In this document: positions 4,638 to 64,000 of the stretch, in pieces | Layout of the letters: the number at the start of each line of letters is the position of its first letter | How positions within the stretch are numbered: position 1 is the stretch's first letter | Origin: Parcubacteria group bacterium | Lineage (GTDB): Bacteria; Patescibacteriota; Minisyncoccia; Phycocordibacterales; 21-14-all-47-15 | Length of the DNA stretch: 64,000 nucleotides | Direction: 5' to 3' | Assembly: GCA_016181845.1 (NCBI GenBank) | Contig: JACOYO010000003.1 | Span: 16,185 to 80,184, forward strand | The notes under the pieces: generated by a model | Told to the model about the DNA's origin: nothing | Database searches by the model: none | What the model saw: only the letters and a program-made list of their open reading frames with translations | Position numbers and translations under genes: made by a program

Positions 4638-4669
4638 CCGTGAAGGACCGTCCTTCACGGGTGTTTTTG
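4638..4669 (+). repeat. palindromic hairpin plus T-tract (copy of the gtgaaggaccgtccttcac repeat family)
   Basis: ccgtgaaggaccgtccttcacgg then gtgtttttg. Related copies at 7551-7571 and 59039-59053. Confidence 0.5.
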
Positions 4670-4677
4670 ATTCAACA

Positions 4678-4749
4678 AATTCGGCTATCGCATAGCCGAA
4701 TTCGGCAACAAATTCGGCAACAAAAATTCGGCTATCGCATAGCCGAATT
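4678..4749. promoter_or_regulatory. two identical 25-bp palindromes (aattcggctat-cgc-atagccgaatt) bracketing two ttcggcaacaaa direct repeats; putative operator
   Basis: Palindromes at 4678-4702 and 4725-4749, about 140 bp upstream of typA. Confidence 0.4.
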
Positions 4750-4886
4750 TGAATGTTTTGGAAAAACTATACTTTTTCTTTTTGATATGGTATTATGTGG
4801 TTTACTCGCTTAAGGGTCGGTTCAAAATCTCCAAGCGCATGGGGATTTTTTCTTTCAGAAAAGCGCGCGTATTAAAATCTCTACTT

Positions 4887-7528: not shown

Positions 7529-7581
7529 AAACACCTCTGTGAAGAGCCGTTTGTGAAGGACCGTCCTTCACAGAGGTGTTT
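7528..7581. repeat. nested palindrome containing the gtgaaggaccgtccttcac repeat, with alternative pairings
   Basis: aaacacctctgtgaag...tgtgaaggaccgtccttcacagaggtgtttt. Either tgtgaag copy can pair with the single cttcaca, so the two hairpins are mutually exclusive. Confidence 0.45.
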
Positions 7582-8673: not shown

Positions 8674-8711
8674 AAAAACCGCTATTCCAATATACTGGAA
8701 TAGCGGTTTTT
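8672..8711 (+). terminator. intrinsic terminator (bidirectional)
   Basis: aaaaaaaccgctattccaatatactggaatagcggttttt. Confidence 0.6.
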
Positions 8712-9573: not shown

Positions 9574-9592
9574 ATGGACATCCGATGTCCAT
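9574..9592. repeat. palindrome atggacat-ccg-atgtccat overlapping the UDG stop codon
   Basis: Core ggacatcNgatgtcc is shared with 63635-63661. Confidence 0.5.
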
Positions 9593-10227: not shown

Positions 10228-10260
10228 ATTTGTATCGTAGCACAAACCAAACATGAATAA

Positions 10261-10309
10261 CTTGGAGGTCGAGACTTGGAGGCTCAACCTCCAAGTCTCG
10301 ACCTCCAAG
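10261..10309. repeat. 49-bp perfect palindrome (22-bp arms) in a divergent promoter region
   Basis: cttggaggtcgagacttggagg-ctcaa-cctccaagtctcgacctccaag. Confidence 0.6.
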
Positions 10310-10396
10310 TGATTGCTCCACATAAAAAGCTGTGCTACACTGCCGGTTTAGATAGAAAGTCTTTTGTCATTATCAACAACAAGATGGAGGAGTGTG

Positions 10397-13589: not shown

Positions 13590-13639
13590 ACTTAGTGGTT
13601 GAACCTCTCAGTGAAAGACTATGCCAGTATACTGGCATA
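13590..13639. repeat. composite dispersed repeat: acttagtggttgaacc... palindrome (R2) next to the tatgccagtatactggcata palindrome (R1)
   Basis: The same R2+R1 juxtaposition recurs at 46704-46785. Confidence 0.6.
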
Positions 13640-13822
13640 CCATCTGACCTCTATGATATTCCGCTCGCGAAGCGGAAACGGATTGCCGTCTTTATGGTTT
13701 TTCTTCTTGCGCGTACTTGCATACTTGGTAGCTCAACTGCTAAATCAAGTGTTGCGATTAATTCTGGAATTCACCTACCATGTCATTGATAATTATCACC
13801 TTTTGGCTTACACTTGATATAT

Positions 13823-21748: not shown

Positions 21749-21819
21749 TATACCTAAAATATGACGAATTGTAAATAAACTACACTAAAATTATTAACAT
21801 ATCTTGTCTACTATGCCAG

Positions 21820-21843
21820 TATACTGGCATAGTGAAGATAAGA
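21820..21843. repeat. R1 palindrome copy (actatgccagtatactggcatagt)
   Basis: 24-bp perfect palindrome between sufB and rpoD. Confidence 0.6.
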
Positions 21844-32354: not shown

Positions 32355-33599
32355 TTATATATTTTTATTTTGCATTCTTCGCTTTCGATGAAAACTTATG
32401 GCAAACCGATGGGCTTCGGCATTTGCAAAGAGGATATCAGCTTCGTGCCGTATCGCGAGCACGCGGTCGCCGATGATTTTTTTCGGGCGATGACGCTCGT
32501 CTTTGACCACGCCGACCACAGGGATTGCCACGCCAGCCGAAACAAGCGCGTGCTTCGCCGCATTCACTTGCGCGGTTCCGCCGTCAACAACAATCAAACG
32601 TGGCAGTGGCCACTCGGCATGCGCAAGCCGTCGCGAAAGAATTTCTGACAGCGCGCGCGTATCATTCACCCCTTCAAAACTCTTTATATTAAATTTCCGA
32701 TACTCATTTTTTTGTGCCTCGCCGCCCTCAACAACTGTCATCACGCCAACAGACGCTGAACCTGAAAAATGCGCCACGTCATACGCTTCTATTTTGAAAG
32801 TAGAATATGAAAAGTTGAGAGTCGGCGTATTTTTGATAAGAGAAACATCTTGAATATGTTTCAGCGCAAAAATAGTTTTTTTAATTTCATGCGCGCGTTC
32901 AAATGCGCGGTGTTTTGCCGCTTCTCGCATCTCCCGCTCCAATTTTTTAATAAGCATGCCTTTTTTTCCTTCAAAAAAAAGTTTCAGATTTTGTATGATT
33001 TTTGCGTATTCTTTTTTTGAAATCGCTCCAGTGCATACGCCAGGGCATAACCCTATTTGAGTATTAAAACAGGGCTTTTCTTGCCTAAGACGGCATACAT
33101 CGCGAAATGGAAAAATTTTTCTCACAATTTTCAACGCTTCTCGAAGCTGGTTGCCATATGTAAAAGGACCGAATACGTCTTTGACTTGGACGTCGGGTTT
33201 CCAAGTTAACTTGGAAACCCGACGTCCAAGTAGTTCACGTTCCCGCGCCAGAAGCACTCGCGGAAAATCTTCGTCGGTAATGACGACATAATTAAAGCTT
33301 TTGTCGCTCTTTTCTTTTGAATTGTATTTCGGTTGGTGTTTTTTTATCAGCGCCGCTTCAAGAATGAGCGCTTCAAGCACTGAATCGGTTTCTACCACGC
33401 GCACATCACGCGCTTGTTCGAGCATCTCCGCAATAATTGGCCCGCGGGCGCTCATGAGATCCGACGAAAAATAACTTCTTATCCTATCACGAAGCGATGT
33501 CGCCTTACCGATATACAAAATATCTTTTCGCGCGCCCAAAAACTGATACACTCCAGGCGTATCCGGCAAATTTATTTTATTTAGTCGATTTTTTTGCAT
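32355..33599 (-). CDS. uvrC: excinuclease ABC subunit C, short form (GIY-YIG plus RNase-H-like endonuclease domain, no C-terminal (HhH)2)
   Basis: N-terminal GIY-YIG (PGVYQFLG...ILYIGKA) and a C-terminal VVDGGTAQVNAA... domain. 414 aa. Overlaps the uvrA stop. Confidence 0.8.
   Translation of the reverse strand: MQKNRLNKINLPDTPGVYQFLGARKDILYIGKATSLRDRIRSYFSSDLMSARGPIIAEMLEQARDVRVVETDSVLEALILEAALIKKHQPKYNSKEKSDKSFNYVVITDEDFPRVLLARERELLGRRVSKLTWKPDVQVKDVFGPFTYGNQLREALKIVRKIFPFRDVCRLRQEKPCFNTQIGLCPGVCTGAISKKEYAKIIQNLKLFFEGKKGMLIKKLEREMREAAKHRAFERAHEIKKTIFALKHIQDVSLIKNTPTLNFSYSTFKIEAYDVAHFSGSASVGVMTVVEGGEAQKNEYRKFNIKSFEGVNDTRALSEILSRRLAHAEWPLPRLIVVDGGTAQVNAAKHALVSAGVAIPVVGVVKDERHRPKKIIGDRVLAIRHEADILFANAEAHRFAISFHRKRRMQNKNI
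33185..33230. repeat. 46-bp perfect palindrome inside the uvrC coding sequence, in frame
   Basis: cttggacgtcgggtttccaagtt|aacttggaaacccgacgtccaag encodes LGRRVSKLTWKPDVQ. The cttgga(g/c)gtcg...ccaag theme is shared with 10261-10309. Confidence 0.6.
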
Positions 33600-36244: not shown

Positions 36245-36296
36245 TAATTTTTCCTGCGACTATGCCAGTATACTGGCATAGTCGCAGGAAAAATTA
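36245..36296. repeat. 52-bp perfect palindrome carrying the R1 core (tatgccagtatactggcata)
   Basis: taatttttcctgcgactatgccagta|tactggcatagtcgcaggaaaaatta. It makes the track ORFs 36016..36297(+) and 36244..36432(-) end in the same peptide. Confidence 0.7.
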
Positions 36297-38861: not shown

Positions 38862-40101
38862 CTGTTTTATAGTAATTATTCAAAAAATTTTTTTTATATA
38901 ATTCAAAATTATTGTCTACAATACTACGGCGAATTTTTTTCACCAAATTCACGATAAAAAAGAGATTATGAATTGACGCAAGTGTCGCCGCAAACATTTC
39001 TTTTGCGCGAAAAAGATGTGCCACATACGCGCGAGTATAATGCGCGCATGTATAGCATCGGCATTCTTTTTCTATCGGTGAAAAATCTTCCCGATATTGC
39101 GCGTTCAGAATGTTCATTCGCCCATCGTGTGTGTAGAGCGTGCCGTTTCGCGCCATACGTGTCGGCGCCACACAATCAAACAAATCTATCCCGTTTTCAA
39201 TTCCGCCAAATAAATCGGAGGGCTCGCCGATGCCAAGCAAATGCCGCGGCTTATCCTTCGGCAAGAGCGCATTGACCCAGCCCACGGCGGTGTTCATGTC
39301 TTCTTTGTCAAACGAGCCGCCGATGCCAAACCCATCAAACCCTCGGTCGCCAGATTTCATTTGAGAAATAATTCTCGCGCTCTCTTCGCGCAAATCTCTA
39401 AATCGCCCTCCCTGCACAATACCAAAAAGCGCCTGCTTTCTCCCACTTGGTGGTTGAGCCTCCAGGTGAAAATCAAGACAGCGCTTTGCCCAGCGGTGCG
39501 TGCGCTCCGTCGCTTCTTCTTGGTACGCGCGCGGCGCTTTGGGCGATGTGCATTCATCAAACGCGAAAATGATATCAGCGCCGATGTTGTGCTGAATCTC
39601 AATGGAACGCTCAGGCGTAAAACGATGTTCACTGCCATCCAAATGTGAACGAAACGTGACTCCGTCTTCATCAATTTTTGCCAGCGCAATATCTTCTCCA
39701 TTTTCTTCGCTGAAGCTCTCTCCGTTTTTTTCTCCTTTGGCAATCTTACTCACATTAGTACCAAATGCCGCGCCAAGAGAAAATGCCTGAAATCCGCCAG
39801 AGTCAGTCATTGTCGGTCCATGCCAATTCATGAAGTTATGCAGACCACCCGCTTTTTTCACGCGCAAGTCGCCCGGTTCAAGATACAAATGATATGTATT
39901 CGCGAGCACCACTTGCGCGCCGAGAGATGCAACCTGCTCCGGCGACAATGCTTTTACCGATGCTTTCGTGCCGACAACAACAAACGCCGGCGTTTCAATA
40001 CTGCCATGCGGCGTCGTTAATATACCGGCGCGGCCAAGCGCATTCGGTATCTTTTTTTGTATGGAAAAATTTATTGGCGACATGGCGAAACTATACCACA
40101 C
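38848..40101 (-). CDS. tgt: queuine tRNA-ribosyltransferase
   Basis: ...VVGTKASVKAL... and the C-terminal zinc site CRCYTC...H. 417 aa; the real start may be M6. Confidence 0.9.
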   Translation of the reverse strand: MWYSFAMSPINFSIQKKIPNALGRAGILTTPHGSIETPAFVVVGTKASVKALSPEQVASLGAQVVLANTYHLYLEPGDLRVKKAGGLHNFMNWHGPTMTDSGGFQAFSLGAAFGTNVSKIAKGEKNGESFSEENGEDIALAKIDEDGVTFRSHLDGSEHRFTPERSIEIQHNIGADIIFAFDECTSPKAPRAYQEEATERTHRWAKRCLDFHLEAQPPSGRKQALFGIVQGGRFRDLREESARIISQMKSGDRGFDGFGIGGSFDKEDMNTAVGWVNALLPKDKPRHLLGIGEPSDLFGGIENGIDLFDCVAPTRMARNGTLYTHDGRMNILNAQYREDFSPIEKECRCYTCAHYTRAYVAHLFRAKEMFAATLASIHNLFFIVNLVKKIRRSIVDNNFELYKKNFLNNYYKTDAIV

Positions 40102-40960: not shown

Positions 40961-40989
40961 TTCACTTAGTGGTTGAACCACTAAGTGAA
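40961..40989. repeat. R2 palindrome copy (ttcacttagtgg-ttgaa-ccactaagtgaa)
   Basis: 29 bp; related copies at 13590-13616, 46733-46755 and 49951-49976. Confidence 0.6.
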
Positions 40990-41008
40990 CATAACAAAGG
41001 AGCCGCGT

Positions 41009-41860
41009 ATGAATGAGCCCGTTTCAAAAAAAGACCCTTCTTTTGAAATTACGTTATTTACAGCAATGGACCAAACCGGAAGAATGAGAAACTCGCAAGA
41101 GTCGGACCGACCACTTTGGGATAATAACCCGGAGATTATTAAGGAGCTCAATCGGATTGCTTTTAGAAAAATCATATTGATGGGAAGAAAAACATACGAA
41201 CTCCTCCTGCACGACGCGACCAAGCATGTTTTTTTAAATGACGCGGCGATTATTTTCGTTCTCACAAAAAAGCGCGGCGATGAACTTATTAAAAAAGAGC
41301 ACACCTCACACGTGTATGCTATTAATGCGCTTGAAGGTATAAGAAATTTTTGGTGGTTATTGGAAGAAGCATTTGAGGAAAAAAGGAGACAAAAAATAAC
41401 AGCGTGCCGCAAAGTACAAAATGACTGGAGAAAGAAACCGGAAACGACTGGCACAAAAGAAAACTCCGAATCGCCGATGTCTAATCCAAAAGATAAAGAA
41501 CTGGTTGAACAACTAGAAAAAACAATAGATAGTATAGAGCAAGAAAAAATCCCAATCCAACCGGAAATTGTGGTGCTTGGAGGCGTTAGTTTGTATCAAG
41601 AAATGATTGATTATGCCACTGCTATCTATGCATTTCTGATTCATGCTGAATTTACCGGCGAAGAAAAATTCCCTCTCTTTTTCAATGAGCAAGACTGGGA
41701 AATTAAAGGGGAGATGGACTCTAAAGAAAAAGATTCCAACGGATATCCCCTTTTTACGTCAATAACATATCGGCGAAAAGCCCAGCCAGAAAAACATCTG
41801 CCTTTTTTCAGGCCGGATTTGCCTCCTTTGCCTGTGGAAAAAGAAAAATCAAAAAAATGA
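41009..41860 (+). CDS. dihydrofolate-reductase-fold protein with an approximately 80-aa Lys/Glu-rich insertion
   Basis: Start at MNEPVSKK (AAAGGAG upstream). The N-terminal half has ...LFTAMDQTGRMRN...PLW...ILMGRKTYELL...; the C-terminal half has ...IVVLGGVSLYQEMIDYATAIYAFLIHAEFTGEEKFP...DWE, which matches the DHFR pattern. Confidence 0.55.
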   Translation: MNEPVSKKDPSFEITLFTAMDQTGRMRNSQESDRPLWDNNPEIIKELNRIAFRKIILMGRKTYELLLHDATKHVFLNDAAIIFVLTKKRGDELIKKEHTSHVYAINALEGIRNFWWLLEEAFEEKRRQKITACRKVQNDWRKKPETTGTKENSESPMSNPKDKELVEQLEKTIDSIEQEKIPIQPEIVVLGGVSLYQEMIDYATAIYAFLIHAEFTGEEKFPLFFNEQDWEIKGEMDSKEKDSNGYPLFTSITYRRKAQPEKHLPFFRPDLPPLPVEKEKSKK

Positions 41861-44105: not shown

Positions 44106-46037
44106 TTAATGCGCAATCAGCTGGTTGGCAATCATGAATATATTGCCGAGCAATGACGCGCTTTTGGCATTTGATTGCGGCGCTTCGGATGGAGGTGGCG
44201 GAGCAATACTGCCGTCTAAAGGAGCGGTAAATCCTGTTGGTTCCGTTTGTGGCGGAGGTGGCGCTATCTGTTGCTGTTCTTGCTGGAGCATCATTCCGCT
44301 ATCTATTGGTTGTATGATTGGCATTATTGAAGTGCGCTCTCCTTCCTGAAAACCTTGTTCTGTTTGCGGCATTTGCGGTATAAATTTTTCCCCTTCTATT
44401 CTCATCATATTGTCGTCTCCCATCATCGGTCTTTCAAAAGATTGCCGGTCGTCAAATTTCTGCTCGCCTTCAAAAATCCGCTGTTGTACATCGCGCTGAA
44501 ATTCTTCAGGATTCTTAAAATGTTCCAATGACGGCATCCCTTCGCGCACGCATCGCTCAATCGTCCCGCCGATGTCAGACGGCGCGCGACTGCTATCAAG
44601 CGCCCCTTTCACGCAATCACGCGCGGATTCCGGCACAGCATTGAGATTAAAATGTTCTTGAAATCCTTTTTTGATTTCGCGCTCGCGAATATTCCTCTCA
44701 TCATCTTTTCCTTTCATCATTCCATTCTCTCCATGCTCAAAGCCGCCATTAAAATCTTCCAGCATATTGCCTTGCATGTCTCTGAAATCGCCTCGCGGTT
44801 GCTCGCCGCTGAATTGTTCAAAACATCCGCGTATTTCTGACTCCGCTTTTTGGCGTTCTTCTTGAGACATCTTGCCCATATTTTGCAATCCTTCTTTGCC
44901 GATGCGTTCAGTAACGCAAGATTCCACCTCCGGAGGCATGTTTCCCATAAACCCGCCTTCACCATTTTCAGGTCCTCCCATTCCGCCGAATTGTTCAAAA
45001 CATTTTTGCGCGGTGTCGCCAATATTTTTTCCTGGCATCTTGGTGCCGGCGCGAATGCCTTCAATCACGTCAGACCCGAGAGCGTCTTTTAAGCATTGCG
45101 ACACTGGAGCAGGCGCTTCATCAAGCATTTTTCTAAATTCTCCGACATGGCGGTTAATATTTTCAAGCTCATCTGGAGGTATCAGCCCATGCTCTTGCGC
45201 AAACGCAAAACAGGCATCCTGATGCGCGGGGTCTTCGCAATATGTTTGACATTCTTCGCGCTTACAGCCACCGGGGCCTTTGCCACCCGTTTTCCTAGCC
45301 ATTTCAGCGTCTTTTGCAGAAACAAATCCCGCTTTTTCACCAAAAGCAAGACATTCTTCAAAATGAGAGTCGTCGTTGCAGTATGCTTCACATTCTTTTT
45401 TGCCTTTGCATCCGCCCGGCATTTGTCCGCTCTTCATAAGGGGGGCGATACGCCTTGCTTCCGCAAGTTCTTCGGGAGGAATAAATCCGGCTTTTTCAGC
45501 AAACGCCAAACACTCATCTATGTGCGCGCCGTCTTCACAATATGCCTGACATTCTTTTTTCCCCTTACAACCCCCGGGCGGCACCGCGCCGTCTTTCAGC
45601 GCTTTTGCCACTTGTTTTGCTTCTTTTAATTCATCGGGCGGAATAAGACCGTGTTTTTCTCCAAACGCGACGCACTCTTCAATATGCGCCACATCTTCGC
45701 AATACGTATCGCAAGCCCCCTTTGAAGCACAGCCGCCAGGCCCGCTTGTTTCTCCAAGTTGCGCGAATTTCTTTGCCTCCCGTAATTCATCTGGCGGAAT
45801 TAAATTATATTTTTCTGCAAAAGAAAGACATGCATTGACATGCGACAAATCGTCACAATACGCACGGCACGCTTTTTCGTCCTTACAATCCCCCAATTCT
45901 GAAACCGGAAATACGATGTCTTGTGCCGTAAGCGCCTGCGCGGAAGAAACGCCAACTGCTCCGATGCCGACAATAACCGCTATAAAAAAAATCGCGTATC
46001 TCGTAAAAAGAAAAATATTTTTGTGCCGCATAAACAA
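44106..46037 (-). CDS. secreted protein with five tandem 4-Cys modules (about 49 aa each) and a long acidic, Gly/Met/Gln-rich, Pro-terminated tail
   Basis: Signal peptide ...GAVGVSSAQA. The repeat consensus is approximately GGCKGKKEC.AYCEDxxHI.EC.AFAEK.G.IPPDEL.EA, with C-x5-6-C-x3-C-x8-C spacing. Confidence 0.55.
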   Translation of the reverse strand: MFMRHKNIFLFTRYAIFFIAVIVGIGAVGVSSAQALTAQDIVFPVSELGDCKDEKACRAYCDDLSHVNACLSFAEKYNLIPPDELREAKKFAQLGETSGPGGCASKGACDTYCEDVAHIEECVAFGEKHGLIPPDELKEAKQVAKALKDGAVPPGGCKGKKECQAYCEDGAHIDECLAFAEKAGFIPPEELAEARRIAPLMKSGQMPGGCKGKKECEAYCNDDSHFEECLAFGEKAGFVSAKDAEMARKTGGKGPGGCKREECQTYCEDPAHQDACFAFAQEHGLIPPDELENINRHVGEFRKMLDEAPAPVSQCLKDALGSDVIEGIRAGTKMPGKNIGDTAQKCFEQFGGMGGPENGEGGFMGNMPPEVESCVTERIGKEGLQNMGKMSQEERQKAESEIRGCFEQFSGEQPRGDFRDMQGNMLEDFNGGFEHGENGMMKGKDDERNIREREIKKGFQEHFNLNAVPESARDCVKGALDSSRAPSDIGGTIERCVREGMPSLEHFKNPEEFQRDVQQRIFEGEQKFDDRQSFERPMMGDDNMMRIEGEKFIPQMPQTEQGFQEGERTSIMPIIQPIDSGMMLQQEQQQIAPPPPQTEPTGFTAPLDGSIAPPPPSEAPQSNAKSASLLGNIFMIANQLIAH

Positions 46038-46351: not shown

Positions 46352-46703
46352 ATTATATTTAGTATAGCAAGACGGTTTTTCTATTCAAGAAAAAGTTATG
46401 CACATGAGCCACACTCAAAACTCCAATTGCAAAAAAGCCCCGCGAAAGGGCTTTAGAATGTGTCTGTCTATGATACCTGTCACCAGCAGAAAGCGTGGGG
46501 ATTTTAATCCTGTGTACGCAGAGAATTATCCCCGCTTTCTGCCGGTGAATGTCCGGCAAAAAATAACCTTATTCTTTATTCTTATTTGGGAACACCAGTT
46601 TTATATTGTATCATAACTCATTCACTCCACAAGTGCATAACTTGTAAATTCAAGAATACATGACTCTTACAAAGTCATACAAATGGTAGCGCTTTGTAGA
46701 TGG

Positions 46704-46785
46704 TATGCCAGTATACTGGCATAGTCTTTGTCACTTAGTGGCTCAACCACTAAGTTGATACTGAGAGGTTGAGCCACTAAGTTTG
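46704..46785. repeat. composite dispersed repeat: R1 palindrome (46704-46723), then R2 palindrome (46733-46755), then a partial R2
   Basis: tatgccagtatactggcata ... acttagtggctcaaccactaagt ... ttgagccactaagt. Confidence 0.6.
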
Positions 46786-46910
46786 TCAAAACAAAGAAAA
46801 CAAAGGTTAGCCCTTTGTTGGAGATAACTTTTTGACGACGCGGAAGCAAAAACATCTTTTATAAGCGGCGCGCGACAATACGCCACGCCGCAAAAAAAGA
46901 AATTTTAATT

Positions 46911-47260: not shown

Positions 47261-47980
47261 TTAAAACAAGCTTTTGGGAGGCGAGTTTTTCCTTTCCCAT
47301 GTAACCCGCAAAAGGTCATATTTATTTTCTTTATTCGCGGGATATTCCTGATAGTTATTTGGATTCTGCTTCCAGTGGACGCTGTCAATCGGCGGCAAAA
47401 TCGTATCCCCGGAAAAATTCTCACAAATTAAAAACATATATATTCTATCGGCATAATCAAGAATCCGTCGATAGAGAAGGCGGCCTCCTATAGCCACTAT
47501 TTCTTTTTCAAGACGCGGTTCTGTCTCCACTTTATATAGTTGTTTTGGGGACAATTTTTTCTCCTTAATCAGCTTTTGTCTTTGCAACTCAATATTTTTC
47601 TCGTCATTCTCATGTTTTGCTTCCTCCAACCGGTGCGTAGAGTGCCATATATTCCTCACTTTGCCGAGCGACCGCACAACTTGAACGGGATAATTTTCTG
47701 GCGGGCTGAAATTTTTATTCTTCGTCAGAATAAAACACGAGTGTCTTTTTTTGTCTGTAAGAATGTATCTGCCGTAATCGTAATTGCTAAATGCCTGAAA
47801 TGTGGTTGGTCCCATAACAACACATTTATCTCGCGTGAGAGATTCTAATTGTCTGAATACTTCCGGCATATCCTCTGCCCAAGGATACCTGTCTCCACTC
47901 CTCGTATGCCCGCCCATTTCTTGAAATATGCAAAAGCTGACTTTGAATGGATCTGTGCGCGAAGCATCGCTTGTTTGCAT
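47261..47980 (-). CDS. second dihydrofolate-reductase-fold paralog with a Lys/Glu-rich coiled-coil-like insertion
   Basis: Start moved to MQTSDAS (GGAGG upstream). ...KVSFCIFQEMGGHTRSGDRYPW...VVMGPTTFQAF... and ...IVAIGGRLLYRRILDYADRIYMFLI...FSGDTILPP..D...W. Confidence 0.55.
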   Translation of the reverse strand: MQTSDASRTDPFKVSFCIFQEMGGHTRSGDRYPWAEDMPEVFRQLESLTRDKCVVMGPTTFQAFSNYDYGRYILTDKKRHSCFILTKNKNFSPPENYPVQVVRSLGKVRNIWHSTHRLEEAKHENDEKNIELQRQKLIKEKKLSPKQLYKVETEPRLEKEIVAIGGRLLYRRILDYADRIYMFLICENFSGDTILPPIDSVHWKQNPNNYQEYPANKENKYDLLRVTWERKNSPPKSLF

Positions 47981-48210
47981 GACAAAACCTCCGCAGATAA
48001 TGATTGGAATGTGTGCGTATGTCAACGTACTTCCCTTTTTATGCACTATACGCCTCCATGAGACATTTATAAAGGTTCTTAAAGGTTCCTCTTGGCAAAC
48101 CCGCGAAGAACATAATGCGCGCCGTAACCGTACTTTACAAACAGCATAGGAAAGCACAACATAAAAGACAGAAAGCATTATTTGATAATTATATAATGGA
48201 GGATTTTGCC

Positions 48211-49950: not shown

Positions 49951-49976
49951 ACTTGGTGGTTAAACCCCCAAGTGAA
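49951..49976. repeat. R2-variant palindrome (acttggtggttaaacccccaagtgaa)
   Basis: Degenerate relative of acttagtggttgaaccactaagtgaa. Confidence 0.45.
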
Positions 49977-58994: not shown

Positions 58995-59059
58995 GGTTTA
59001 ATTATATCCTATTTTAGTCCACCAATCATAACTCCTGCGAAGGACGGTCCTTCACGGAT

Positions 59060-59099
59060 TTCGGAGCCTAAGTTGTTCTAACTGCCCGACAGGGATTCG
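59060..59099. repeat. 40-bp direct repeat copy 1 containing a 19-bp copy of the tRNA-Gln 3' end
   Basis: tcggagcctaagttgttctaactgcccgacagggattcg; identical copy at 59250-59289. Confidence 0.6.
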
Positions 59100-59249: not shown

Positions 59250-59289
59250 ATCGGAGCCTAAGTTGTTCTAACTGCCCGACAGGGATTCG
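59250..59289. repeat. 40-bp direct repeat copy 2 (tRNA-Gln 3'-end fragment)
   Basis: Identical to 59060-59099. An inverted TTCGAATCCCTG fragment also lies at 59369-59380. Confidence 0.6.
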
Positions 59290-59430
59290 AACATTACATG
59301 TTCAGTACAGGTTTCCCATTTTTTCGCCATGCTTGCGAGCATGCCTCAAAAATATGGGAGAACCTTTTCGAATCCCTGACGAAAGTGCCATCGGGCACTT
59401 TCTTCCGTCATTTCTTCGCTTCGCTCCGAA

Positions 59431-59501
59431 CTGCCCGACAGGGATTCGAACCCCAATTAACGGCTTCAAAGGCCGCTGTCCTACCATTAGACGATCGGGC
59501 A
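59431..59501 (-). tRNA. tRNA-Gln (anticodon UUG)
   Basis: Manual fold of the reverse complement. Acceptor UGCCCGA/UCGGGCA has U1:A72, as in bacterial tRNA-Gln. D-stem GUCU/GGAC; anticodon stem GCGGC/GCCGU with loop CUUUGAA; T-arm UGGGG-UUCGAAU-CCCUG; discriminator G; CCA not encoded. Confidence 0.7.
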
Positions 59502-59506
59502 ACAAA

Positions 59507-63322: not shown

Positions 63323-64000
63323 TCAAACTATCTCTTTCATATCGTTTGTCAAATGAGCGCGGACTATCGTTTCTACCTCACGAGCGTCTTTTGCTTCCAT
63401 CAATTTCGTGCGCAATTCTTTTGCCCCATCAAACCCATTCACATACGCTTTGTAATGTTTTTTCATAATGGCAAAATTTTTATGCGCGCCGAGTTCTTTT
63501 TCAAAAAGTTTTGTATGCTCAACCATCACACGAAGTTTTTCTTCAATTGTAATCTCTTTTTGAATTTCCTTTTGTTTCGATAAACCTTGCGATATATCGC
63601 AAGGTTTTGATTTTGATTTTTTATCATCAGTCAGAATGTTGGACATCGGATGTCCAACATTTGCGAAAAGCCACGGGTTGCCGAATATTGCGCGTCCAAA
63701 CATAACACCGTCGGCGCCAGTCGCGCGCGCTTTTTCTTTAGCGTCTGCCATGTCTTTCACGTCGCCGTTTCCGATGATGAGCGCGCCAGTTCCCTTCGCA
63801 AGATCCACCGCACGCGCAACCCGATCCCACTGCGCCGGCGCTTTTGACATTTCTTTTCTCGTGCGCGCGTGAATCGTAAGCGCGGCGATACCGGTTTCCA
63901 AAAGTGCCGGAATCCACGCTTCCGTTTCGTCTTTGTTGTAGCCCACGCGCGTCTTAACCGACACCGGCAAATCACCGGCGCCCTCTTTTGCGGCATAAAT
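63323..64000 (-). CDS. dus: tRNA-dihydrouridine synthase, C-terminal part (5' end beyond window)
   Basis: ...VKTRVGYNKDETEAWIPALLETGIAALTIHARTRKE... is the Dus TIM-barrel and FMN region. Frame is open to the window edge. Confidence 0.75.
   Translation of the reverse strand: MYAAKEGAGDLPVSVKTRVGYNKDETEAWIPALLETGIAALTIHARTRKEMSKAPAQWDRVARAVDLAKGTGALIIGNGDVKDMADAKEKARATGADGVMFGRAIFGNPWLFANVGHPMSNILTDDKKSKSKPCDISQGLSKQKEIQKEITIEEKLRVMVEHTKLFEKELGAHKNFAIMKKHYKAYVNGFDGAKELRTKLMEAKDAREVETIVRAHLTNDMKEIV
63635..63661. repeat. 27-bp palindrome inside the dus coding sequence, in frame
   Basis: aatgttggacat-cgg-atgtccaacatt encodes NVGHPMSNI. Its core ggacatcNgatgtcc is shared with 9574-9592. Confidence 0.55.

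Follow-up and report, generated by a model that had tools for sequence, protein, structure and literature searches.

Two short palindromes, R1 and R2, lie almost next to each other at 46.7 kb and again at 13.6 kb in a 64,000-nucleotide stretch of DNA from a Parcubacteria group bacterium (in its full length referred to as the window), and this locus raises the question whether such pairs are accidental neighbors, parts of a regulatory or RNA structure, or copies of one mobile element. The preliminary description of the region had favored a composite non-autonomous element over independent hairpins. Our results make it likely that R2 is the repetitive extragenic palindrome (REP) of a Patescibacteria system composed of REPs and a REP-associated tyrosine transposase (RAYT), a domesticated transposase of single-stranded DNA by which REPs are spread, and that R1, a short linker and R2 form a mosaic of two hairpins, resembling the bacterial interspersed mosaic elements (BIMEs) of Escherichia coli, which has been copied at least three times.

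The window was searched for R2 with the pattern ACTTAGTGG-N5-CCACTAAGT, allowing up to three mismatches, and 100 dinucleotide-preserving shuffles were used as a control. The pattern matched at five positions (13590-13612, 40964-40986, 46733-46755, 46760-46782, and 49951-49973), including every locus at which R2 had been reported before, while no match was found in any of the 100 shuffles and none is expected by chance. The stretch at 46769-46782, previously taken for a partial copy, is in fact the end of a complete 23-nt unit (46760-46782), which is inverted with respect to the unit at 46733-46755 (loop TTGAG vs. CTCAA) and differs from it by two substitutions (ACTGAGAGG). The ctctcag/ctgagag sub-motif described for the two composite loci is real and corresponds to the arm variant ACTGAGAGG/CCTCTCAGT (13604-13612 and 46760-46768). 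Repeat searches combined with a hairpin scan revealed additional members of the family with self-complementary arms at 10260-10310, 33184-33231, and 39445-39467, and a possible further one at 803-826. With about 12 units in 64 kb, most of them intergenic, R2 is a short multi-copy palindrome as expected of a REP. The principal units are the following:

46733..46755, R2 unit (REP), ACTTAGTGG-CTCAA-CCACTAAGT, perfect 9-bp arms; the same sequence flanks RAYT genes in other genomes of the candidate phyla radiation (CPR)
46760..46782, second R2 unit, inverted, ACTGAGAGG-TTGAG-CCACTAAGT; with 46733-46755 it forms a doublet like a REPIN (REP doublet forming a hairpin)
13590..13612, R2 unit of the 13.6-kb composite, ACTTAGTGG-TTGAA-CCTCTCAGT, hybrid arms
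40964..40986, solitary perfect R2, 24 nt 5' of the ATG (41010) of a DHFR-domain gene
49951..49973, solitary R2 variant, ACTTGGTGG-TTAAA-CCCCCAAGT, between convergent open reading frames (ORFs), directly after a terminator-like hairpin
10260..10310, nested R2-in-R2, ACTTGGAGG TCGAG (ACTTGGAGG CTCAA CCTCCAAGT) CTCGA CCTCCAAGT, in the 5' region or first codons of the UDG gene
33184..33231, minus strand, inverted doublet of an R2 variant (ACTTGGACGTCGGGTTTCCAAGT) in uvrC, a 48-nt perfect palindrome, 100% complementary
39445..39467, minus strand, R2 unit in tgt, encoding HLEAQPPS

The arms of the doublet at 46733-46782 are 91% complementary and the gap between its two units is four nucleotides long (TGAT). 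Folding of 46695-46790 as single-stranded DNA yields the R1 hairpin and one long R2::R2' hairpin (-27.3 kcal/mol, z = -7.7). Close inverted REPs that fold as a single hairpin, as in REPINs, are thus present here and at 33184-33231. In the nested copy at 10260-10310 the inner unit sits exactly in the loop of the outer one, the halves of which are kept as palindrome arms, and the same arrangement is found in L041 (184-236; loci outside the window carry L numbers throughout).

To determine how far R2 extends beyond the window, 185,579 species genomes were scanned with the exact R2 pattern (18 fixed bases). This yielded 45 loci, 40 of which lie in 16 metagenome-assembled genomes (MAGs) of Patescibacteria labeled as Lloyd-, Yanofsky-, Ryan-, and Niyogibacteria, Paceibacterota, 'Patescibacteria group', and Saccharibacteria; the Lloydbacteria MAG PCTL01 has 11 exact copies. 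The remaining five loci are within the number of chance matches that we estimate (~17). A scan of IMG/VR returned one match only and hence no sign of a phage vector. The arms were then examined in 513 kb of CPR sequence by searching for one arm (ACT[TG][AG]GNNN) and looking for its complement 5 nt downstream (+14). Among 489 arms that differ from the seed, 55 were paired with their own complement, compared with ~0.05 expected, which indicates compensatory change. The variants include ACTTGGAGG, ACTTAGTAG, ACTGAGTGG, and ACTTGGAAA. R2 can accordingly be described as a 23-nt hairpin with an invariant foot (ACTT/AAGT), a covarying stem interior, a 9-bp stem, and a 5-nt loop. The unit also occurs at the apex of A/T-run hairpins (AAAACCCCC-R2-GGGGGTTTT; L002 927, L013 130), and a recurrent palindrome TTCTCTTC-R2-GAAGAGAA with R2 at its apex was seen in three different MAGs (L012 7378, L015 3212, L031 305).

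In L041, four R2 copies surround and interrupt an ORF of 221 amino acids, which matches the Pfam family Y1_Tnp (PF01797) with 31.8 bits (cut-off 23). The best fold match in the PDB to an AF2 model of the transposase (pLDDT 80) is 4er8_A (probability 1.00, E 4.7e-4), which is the E. coli RAYT in complex with a REP hairpin, followed by the TnpA proteins of IS608 and ISDra2. Residues H79, H81, and Y139 are invariant in 30 sequences, and from their motif context H79-x-H81 are the presumed HUH histidines and Y139 the presumed catalytic tyrosine. The Pfam score, these invariant residues and the match to 4er8_A agree in identifying a Y1 HUH fold.

The association of this protein with R2 is recurrent. 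By tblastn, a RAYT homolog of 210-230 amino acids directly adjoins R2 in eight of 40 R2-seeded loci, while we estimate that ~0.3 would be expected if R2 were placed at random. Conversely, loci found through the protein alone (L046, L076, L077) carry R2 at the same four places of the gene. The family is large: one database has over 5,300 of its clusters at 90% identity, several of which JGI has named 'REP element-mobilizing transposase RayT', and another has 949 clusters at 50% identity with E <= 1e-30. In two Lloydbacteria-like genomes (L046; L076/L077) the gene order PDDEXK_1 - RAYT - aminotransferase is conserved and TnpB is missing, which would fit the description of RAYTs as genes that are present once per genome and passed on vertically (PMC5581495).

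The UvrC protein encoded in the window is identical to MBI2046068.1 at NCBI, which comes from a 'Parcubacteria group bacterium' MAG, and its nearest relatives are UvrC proteins of Candidatus Lloydbacteria. To judge by sequence, the host is a CPR/Patescibacteria (Parcubacteria) genome close to Lloydbacteria. The RAYT encoded in L076, a contig from a public run, is exactly P0133 (MBI2046219.1), whose accession lies 151 away from that of the window UvrC. As the accessions are neighbors and both sequences share the R1-R2 composite, P0133 probably belongs to the window's own MAG, on another contig.

A hairpin scan without sequence constraint was carried out on 11 RAYT genes. Nearly all strong hairpins were located at four places, namely 36-59 nt before the start codon, around codon 59, around codon 150, and on or immediately 3' of the stop codon, the exceptions being a few weaker AT-rich hairpins in three loci. 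Genes with the cognate REP at all four places include the following:

L041, 336-1001, RAYT gene
L019, 808-1464, RAYT gene
L046, 8660-9313, RAYT gene
L076, 4548-5219, RAYT gene
others of the set, RAYT genes of the same arrangement

In most of the RAYT loci examined (L018, L019, L026, L041, L046, and L076), R2 is found 36-59 nt before the RAYT start and again at or after the stop, so that these genes are flanked by their own REPs. In L077, where the encoded protein is that of L076, the sequence breaks off after the upstream and internal copies; L012 has no R2 flanking its RAYT gene, and a few loci have only some of the positions. Both internal hairpins are read in frame (e.g., QLSGSTTKL) and fall into predicted surface loops of the protein, modeled with low confidence for the first and only moderate confidence for the second. 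Loop sequences and arm variants of the REPs are uniform inside a RAYT locus and different between loci; the copies of one gene evolve in concert. Likewise, the paired loop peptides are identical in at least six of seven positions in 67 of 99 RAYT homologs, compared with 7.6% of cross-protein pairs.

A divergent RAYT (39% identity), encoded on the metagenome contig L066, which also holds R1, has a palindrome unrelated to R2, GATGGACATCGGATGTCCATC, in its place before the gene, at the first of the internal sites, and after the gene (155-173, 358-376, and 904-922). The same palindrome is present in the window as a third REP family:

9574..9592, R3 palindrome, ATGGACATC-C-GATGTCCAT, with a compensated second copy at 63639-63657

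The overlap of flanking REPs with the ends of RAYT genes is the only overlap of this kind reported (PMC3733652), and no account of REPs embedded in RAYT genes was found in the literature searched. The embedded copies might be functional, either as protected master copies or as a means of self-recognition or autoregulation that couples the specificity of the enzyme to its substrate, although we put this forward tentatively and regard it as rather doubtful. If true, functional embedded REPs would explain how REP and RAYT stay matched, and the genes would represent a natural system in which the co-evolution of REP-RAYT specificity can be read from single genes.

By analogy with the E. coli RAYT and the IS200/IS605 TnpA of IS608, the enzyme would bind the R2 hairpin on single-stranded DNA. 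It would cut and rejoin the DNA at the foot of R2 through the HUH motif (H79-x-H81) and Y139, and would copy REPs in trans to new sites, which often appear to be the apex of an existing hairpin. A preference for insertion at hairpin apices is suggested by R2 lying within R2, by R2 within AAAACCCCC...GGGGGTTTT stems, and by R1 within copy-specific palindromes.

R1 (TATGCCAGTATACTGGCATA) occurs in perfect form at 13620, 21812, 36261, and 46704, where no copy is expected by chance, and as a variant with one compensated stem pair at 8683. Its copies and the linkers that join it to R2 are the following:

46698..46725, R1 of the 46.7-kb composite, AGATGG + TATGCCAGTATACTGGCATA + GT, with the perfect 20-mer at 46704-46723, an 8-bp hairpin in single-stranded DNA
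46724..46732, linker, GTCTTTGTC
13613..13645, linker GAAAGAC + R1 (13620-13639) + CCATCT, composite in the opposite orientation
21812..21831, solitary R1 with rpoD on one side and a sufBD gene on the other
36245..36296, perfect palindrome of 52 nt upstream of uvrA, with R1 in the middle
8674..8711, R1 variant flanked by convergent genes, within an A-run/T-run hairpin

The 46.7-kb locus reads AGATGG-R1-GTCTTTGTC-R2-TGAT-R2', and the same arrangement, with a single R2, is found on the opposite strand at 13.6 kb. The closeness of R1 and R2 at these two loci, pointed out earlier, amounts to gaps of 9 and 7 nt, respectively. Local alignment of the 46.7-kb locus with the reverse complement of the 13.6-kb locus showed a 56-58-nt block, AGATGG-R1-GTCTT(TG)TC-R2, with a score of 91, compared with 19 +/- 2.4 (maximum 27) for shuffles. 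The similarity therefore extends beyond the palindromes and includes the linker, which is the test that the preliminary description had named for a composite. A third composite, ACTTAGTGGTTGAGCCACTAAGT-gtcaaatac-TATGCCAGTATACTGGCATA (R2-linker-R1, with a similar linker), was found at the contig end of L076 (12736-12787). The three linkers, GTCTTTGTC, GTCTTTC, and GTATTTGAC, are 7-9 nt long. Neither in the window nor in 29 metagenome loci do R1 copies that stand alone carry this linker, and the block was therefore copied as one unit. In none of the 29 metagenome loci is R2 adjacent to R1, and R1 is missing from the R2-bearing stretches (up to 8 kb each) of the 16 other Patescibacteria genomes. 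The R1-linker-R2 block was thus duplicated as a unit at least three times in this lineage, while elsewhere R1 and R2 live apart.

The view that the pair is a composite non-autonomous element rather than two independent hairpins holds in part: R1 and R2 are no chance neighbors, a block with a conserved linker is present three times, and the window encodes no transposase. The composite is not the basic mobile unit, though. Because R2 stands alone at 40964, at 49951, and elsewhere without R1, that unit is the single 23-nt hairpin. A check for target-site duplications gave no consistent result: TTGT flanks the 46.7-kb copy only, and nothing comparable was found at 13.6 kb, an absence that HUH/Y1 transposition would predict. 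A reading as a miniature inverted-repeat transposable element (MITE) was rejected, as the composite ends in two unrelated palindromes and has neither terminal inverted repeats nor a consistent target-site duplication. Different palindromes joined by a conserved linker and repeated at several loci correspond to a BIME-like mosaic, of which only three copies are known.

At the 13.6-kb locus, three independent Logan assemblies break off at the same point, 188 nt beyond the stop codon of the M16 peptidase gene that lies upstream, which by arithmetic from the coordinates is ~13643 in the window, just beyond R1. L076 also stops at R1. Contig ends at R1 are consistent with a multi-copy repeat. In a search for an empty site by means of the M16 peptidase, the close matches were Logan contigs of the same organism only, and the next homologs were 50% identical.

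Outside the window, the exact R1 20-mer was found in groundwater metagenomes, mostly Ga0210057 but also Hainich aquifer assemblies, where it forms tandem arrays of a 70-73-bp unit. The genes beside these arrays are ordinary housekeeping genes. Arrays of 3-6 units in Ga0210057 (L047, L050, L054, L059, L069) adjoin sufBD and cysS-dnaB, and behind the last unit there is often another palindrome, ACCAAGGGCGGTCCTTGGT. They are not CRISPR arrays, as the entire 70-73-bp unit repeats at 95-96% identity and unique spacers are missing. Single R1 copies often lie at the exact center of longer palindromes, the arms of which vary from copy to copy. Perfect flanking extensions of at least 6 nt were observed for seven of 52 unique R1 copies (0.01 expected), and extensions of at least 5 nt for 12 of 77 unique R2 copies (<0.1 expected). 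R1 and R2 have only their ACT...AGT ends and their size in common, and the peptides that R1 would encode (TMPVYWHS, LCQYTGI) were found in none of 270 RAYT homologs. In its perfect conservation, its presence that differs between relatives, its tandem arrays and its position at palindrome apices, R1 behaves like a second REP family.

Copies inside housekeeping genes allowed a comparison between relatives. The palindrome at 33184-33231 is read in frame in uvrC (LGRRVSKLTWKPDVQV) and lies in the length-variable linker that joins the GIY-YIG and UVR domains; a different reading frame of the unit gives LGNPTSK, which also occurs as a peptide where other RAYTs have their REPs. At the same position of uvrC in L078 (4329-4351), whose UvrC is 87% identical, there is a single perfect ACTTGGAGG-TTCAA-CCTCCAAGT, read as PLGGSTSKW. 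An orthologous site therefore has a different REP content in the two genomes, a doublet in the window and a single, different R2 in L078. Similarly, the R1 palindrome at 36245-36296 is missing from the orthologous intergenic region of L078 (935-1035), although both sides align, which indicates that R1 is gained and lost in the manner of an insertion and is no conserved operator of uvrA. The unit in tgt (39445-39467) is identical in 22 of 23 positions to the R2 after the RAYT gene in L076 and occupies a variable segment that is one residue longer than in the TGT of Zymomonas mobilis. An insert of ~28 amino acids relative to the solved Z. mobilis enzyme (aa 112-139; window 39685-39768) is neither palindromic nor derived from a REP. 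REPs in uvrABC genes, REP dimers and tandem REP clusters have been described for known REP families, and intragenic GTAG/CGTC REPs have been noted before, above all in uvrA, uvrB, and other excision-repair and recombination genes (PMC3733652).

The same palindromes could in principle be double-stranded operators of dimeric transcription factors, with their juxtaposition marking a compound regulatory region. R1 and R2 are near-perfect palindromes of operator-like size, the R2 at 40964 is located 24 nt before a start codon and just after a TATATT box, and the R1 copies at 36261 and 21812 lie upstream of uvrA and sufBD. However, R2 is also found between convergent ORFs (49951), within the coding regions of uvrC, tgt, and RAYT, and after stop codons, and its arms covary with the palindrome kept, a behavior incompatible with a fixed protein-DNA code. 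No R1 palindrome precedes uvrA in the relative with the 87% identical UvrC, and copies are 100% identical, unlike those of typical regulons. We consider operators very improbable as the primary explanation. Terminators or mRNA-stabilizing 3' hairpins, repeated by convergent selection and not by movement, are very unlikely in this role as well. That many copies lie 3' of genes, that some R2 and R1 units form the apex of A/T-run hairpins (AAAACCCCC-R2-GGGGGTTTT in L002 and L013; window 8674-8711), and that a terminator scan flags R1 at 46704 would fit such RNA elements, and secondary RNA-type roles of REPs are documented (PMC3733652). Nevertheless, most copies in the window have no T-run after the stem, in-frame intragenic copies cannot be terminators, and convergence explains neither why 23-nt sequences are identical across 16 genomes nor why they are so firmly associated with the RAYT gene. 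A terminator-like role is possible as a co-opted function, which is compatible with an origin as REPs.

The remaining alternative concerns only the pairing: R1 and R2 might have become adjacent by independent insertions into the same hot spots, without the composite ever having moved as a unit. Members of both families are often found at the apices of, or beside, other hairpins (7/52 R1 and 12/77 R2 with flanking extensions), R2 nests in R2, and the 46.7-kb copy has an extra R2 unit that is missing from the 13.6-kb copy. Against this stands the 7-9-nt linker, which is kept in all three composites but not beside solitary R1, as well as the AGATGG on the far side of R1 in both window copies; R1 contigs from other samples have no adjacent R2, so that there is no general mutual attraction. 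Independent insertion is therefore very unlikely in our view, and a REP/RAYT system with a mosaic copied as a unit explains the observations best.

Several points weigh against this interpretation. The 64-kb window contains no RAYT or transposase gene according to tblastn, and R2 is accordingly non-autonomous there; the assignment of P0133 to the same genome is based on accession proximity and the shared composite, not on a complete assembly. The L041 protein scores 24.9 bits against the NCBIfam RAYT equivalog NF047646 (REP_Tyr_transpos), far below the cut-off of 80, and sequence searches of the PDB with RAYT profiles returned nothing relevant, even at E = 10. The link to 4ER8 thus came through the fold search only, not through sequence, and the RAYT family described here is a distant clade. 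The flanks of 83 unique R2 copies show no conserved tetranucleotide and hence no GTAG/CGTC tag. Part of the arm covariation could stem from a mechanism that symmetrizes palindromes, such as template switching, rather than from selection for the hairpin. None of 29 R1-bearing contigs (~150 kb) has a RAYT gene flanked by or containing R1, and mobilization of R1 by a RAYT, like the cleavage and transposition of R2, is an activity predicted from related enzymes.

Beyond R1, R2, and R3, at least three further palindrome families were observed in the window, GTGAAGGACCGTCCTTCAC, AAAATCCCCCGACAGACCGTCGGGGGATTTT, and TCGGCTATCGCATAGCCGA, the last of which also occurs in the Lloydbacteria MAG JACROH01 (L078 765-783):

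4640-4668, 7553-7581, 59037-59065; 2126-2158, 2208-2240; 4676-4702, 4725-4751, copies of the further palindrome families

For a small genome, that of the window is unusually rich in repeated hairpins. Its other content is ordinary, with the housekeeping genes uvrABC, tgt, rpoD, and sufBD and a gene for FBPase. At gathering thresholds, Rfam detected only tRNA-Gln in the entire window, and exact-protein look-ups with window products (a TTG-start ORF, UvrB, and P0001) gave no match. Two paralogous proteins of ~300 amino acids with only a C-terminal DHFR-like domain are encoded at 40985-41860 and 47261-48178. A 643-amino-acid protein without a Pfam match (44106-46037) contains internal repeats of ~159 nt with 73-85% identity (45310-45665). 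Two identical 39-nt segments (59061-59099 and 59251-59289) include a copy of the 3' part of a tRNA (…CTGCCCGACAGGGATTCG) and adjoin the sole intact tRNA gene, tRNA-Gln, with related coordinates at 59430-59502. These segments may be remnants of integration sites or of a duplication.

Proteobacteria, along with a small number of further phyla, account for most of what is known about REP/RAYT systems, with each species having its own REP, and CPR genomes (~1 Mb) are usually described as streamlined. A literature search combining RAYT or REP with Patescibacteria, Parcubacteria, or CPR found no description of such a system. New are the untagged REP class, with neither GTAG nor CGTC, the conservation of a REP stem across unusually distant lineages, and a RAYT gene that carries its own REPs in frame. 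The findings mean that a REP/RAYT system is abundant in CPR/Patescibacteria. Its hairpins may break metagenome assemblies, given that the Logan contigs retrieved end at the R1-R2 composite, and the palindrome-encoded peptides added to proteins matter for the annotation of CPR MAGs. Should the embedded copies be functional, it could be studied directly through them what keeps a domesticated transposase matched to its repeats.

The closest known counterparts are the proteobacterial REP/RAYT systems (E. coli TnpA_REP, 4ER8; Pseudomonas REPINs; Nunvar 2010; PMC3116915; Ton-Hoang 2012; PMC5581495). Both consist of short extragenic hairpins in many copies, as singletons and inverted doublets, together with a putatively single-copy Y1/HUH gene that has a conserved synteny, lacks TnpB and lies between copies of its own REP, the last of which overlaps the stop codon; 4ER8 is the best fold match. 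In contrast to these systems, R2 has no GTAG/CGTC tag, its constant part being the stem foot ACTT/AAGT, and the same arms are found across MAGs labeled as several candidate phyla instead of being species-specific. Two REPs are placed in frame in surface loops of the RAYT, the host is an ultra-small CPR bacterium from groundwater with a genome of ~1 Mb, and the NCBIfam RAYT model is not reached.

The composite resembles the BIMEs of E. coli, which are likewise mosaics of different palindromes with short conserved linkers at several loci, sometimes in tandem, and the R1 arrays of Ga0210057 with their 70-73-bp unit are similar to such tandem BIMEs. In BIMEs the joined palindromes are variants (Y, Z1, Z2) from a single REP family, whereas R1 and R2 have only ACT...AGT and their size in common, and no more than three composites are known so far. 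With the Rickettsia palindromic elements and the GTAG/CGTC REPs (Di Nocera 2013, PMC3733652) the system shares in-frame inserts in loops or linkers of housekeeping proteins, notably those of uvr genes, and the geometry of R2 is similar to that of CGTC REPs (8-9-bp stem, 4-5-nt loop). The Rickettsia and CGTC elements have no known dedicated transposase, while R2 has its RAYT and lacks the CGTC tag. IS200/IS605 elements and their derivatives (PATEs, palindrome-associated transposable elements, and MITEs) also rely on a Y1 HUH enzyme that recognizes sub-terminal hairpins, and leave no target-site duplication. They differ in that the RAYT described here is putatively not multi-copy, has no TnpB and has the same palindrome as hairpin at both ends in place of distinct left and right ones, and in that the repeated unit is not a deleted insertion sequence but a hairpin of 23 nt.

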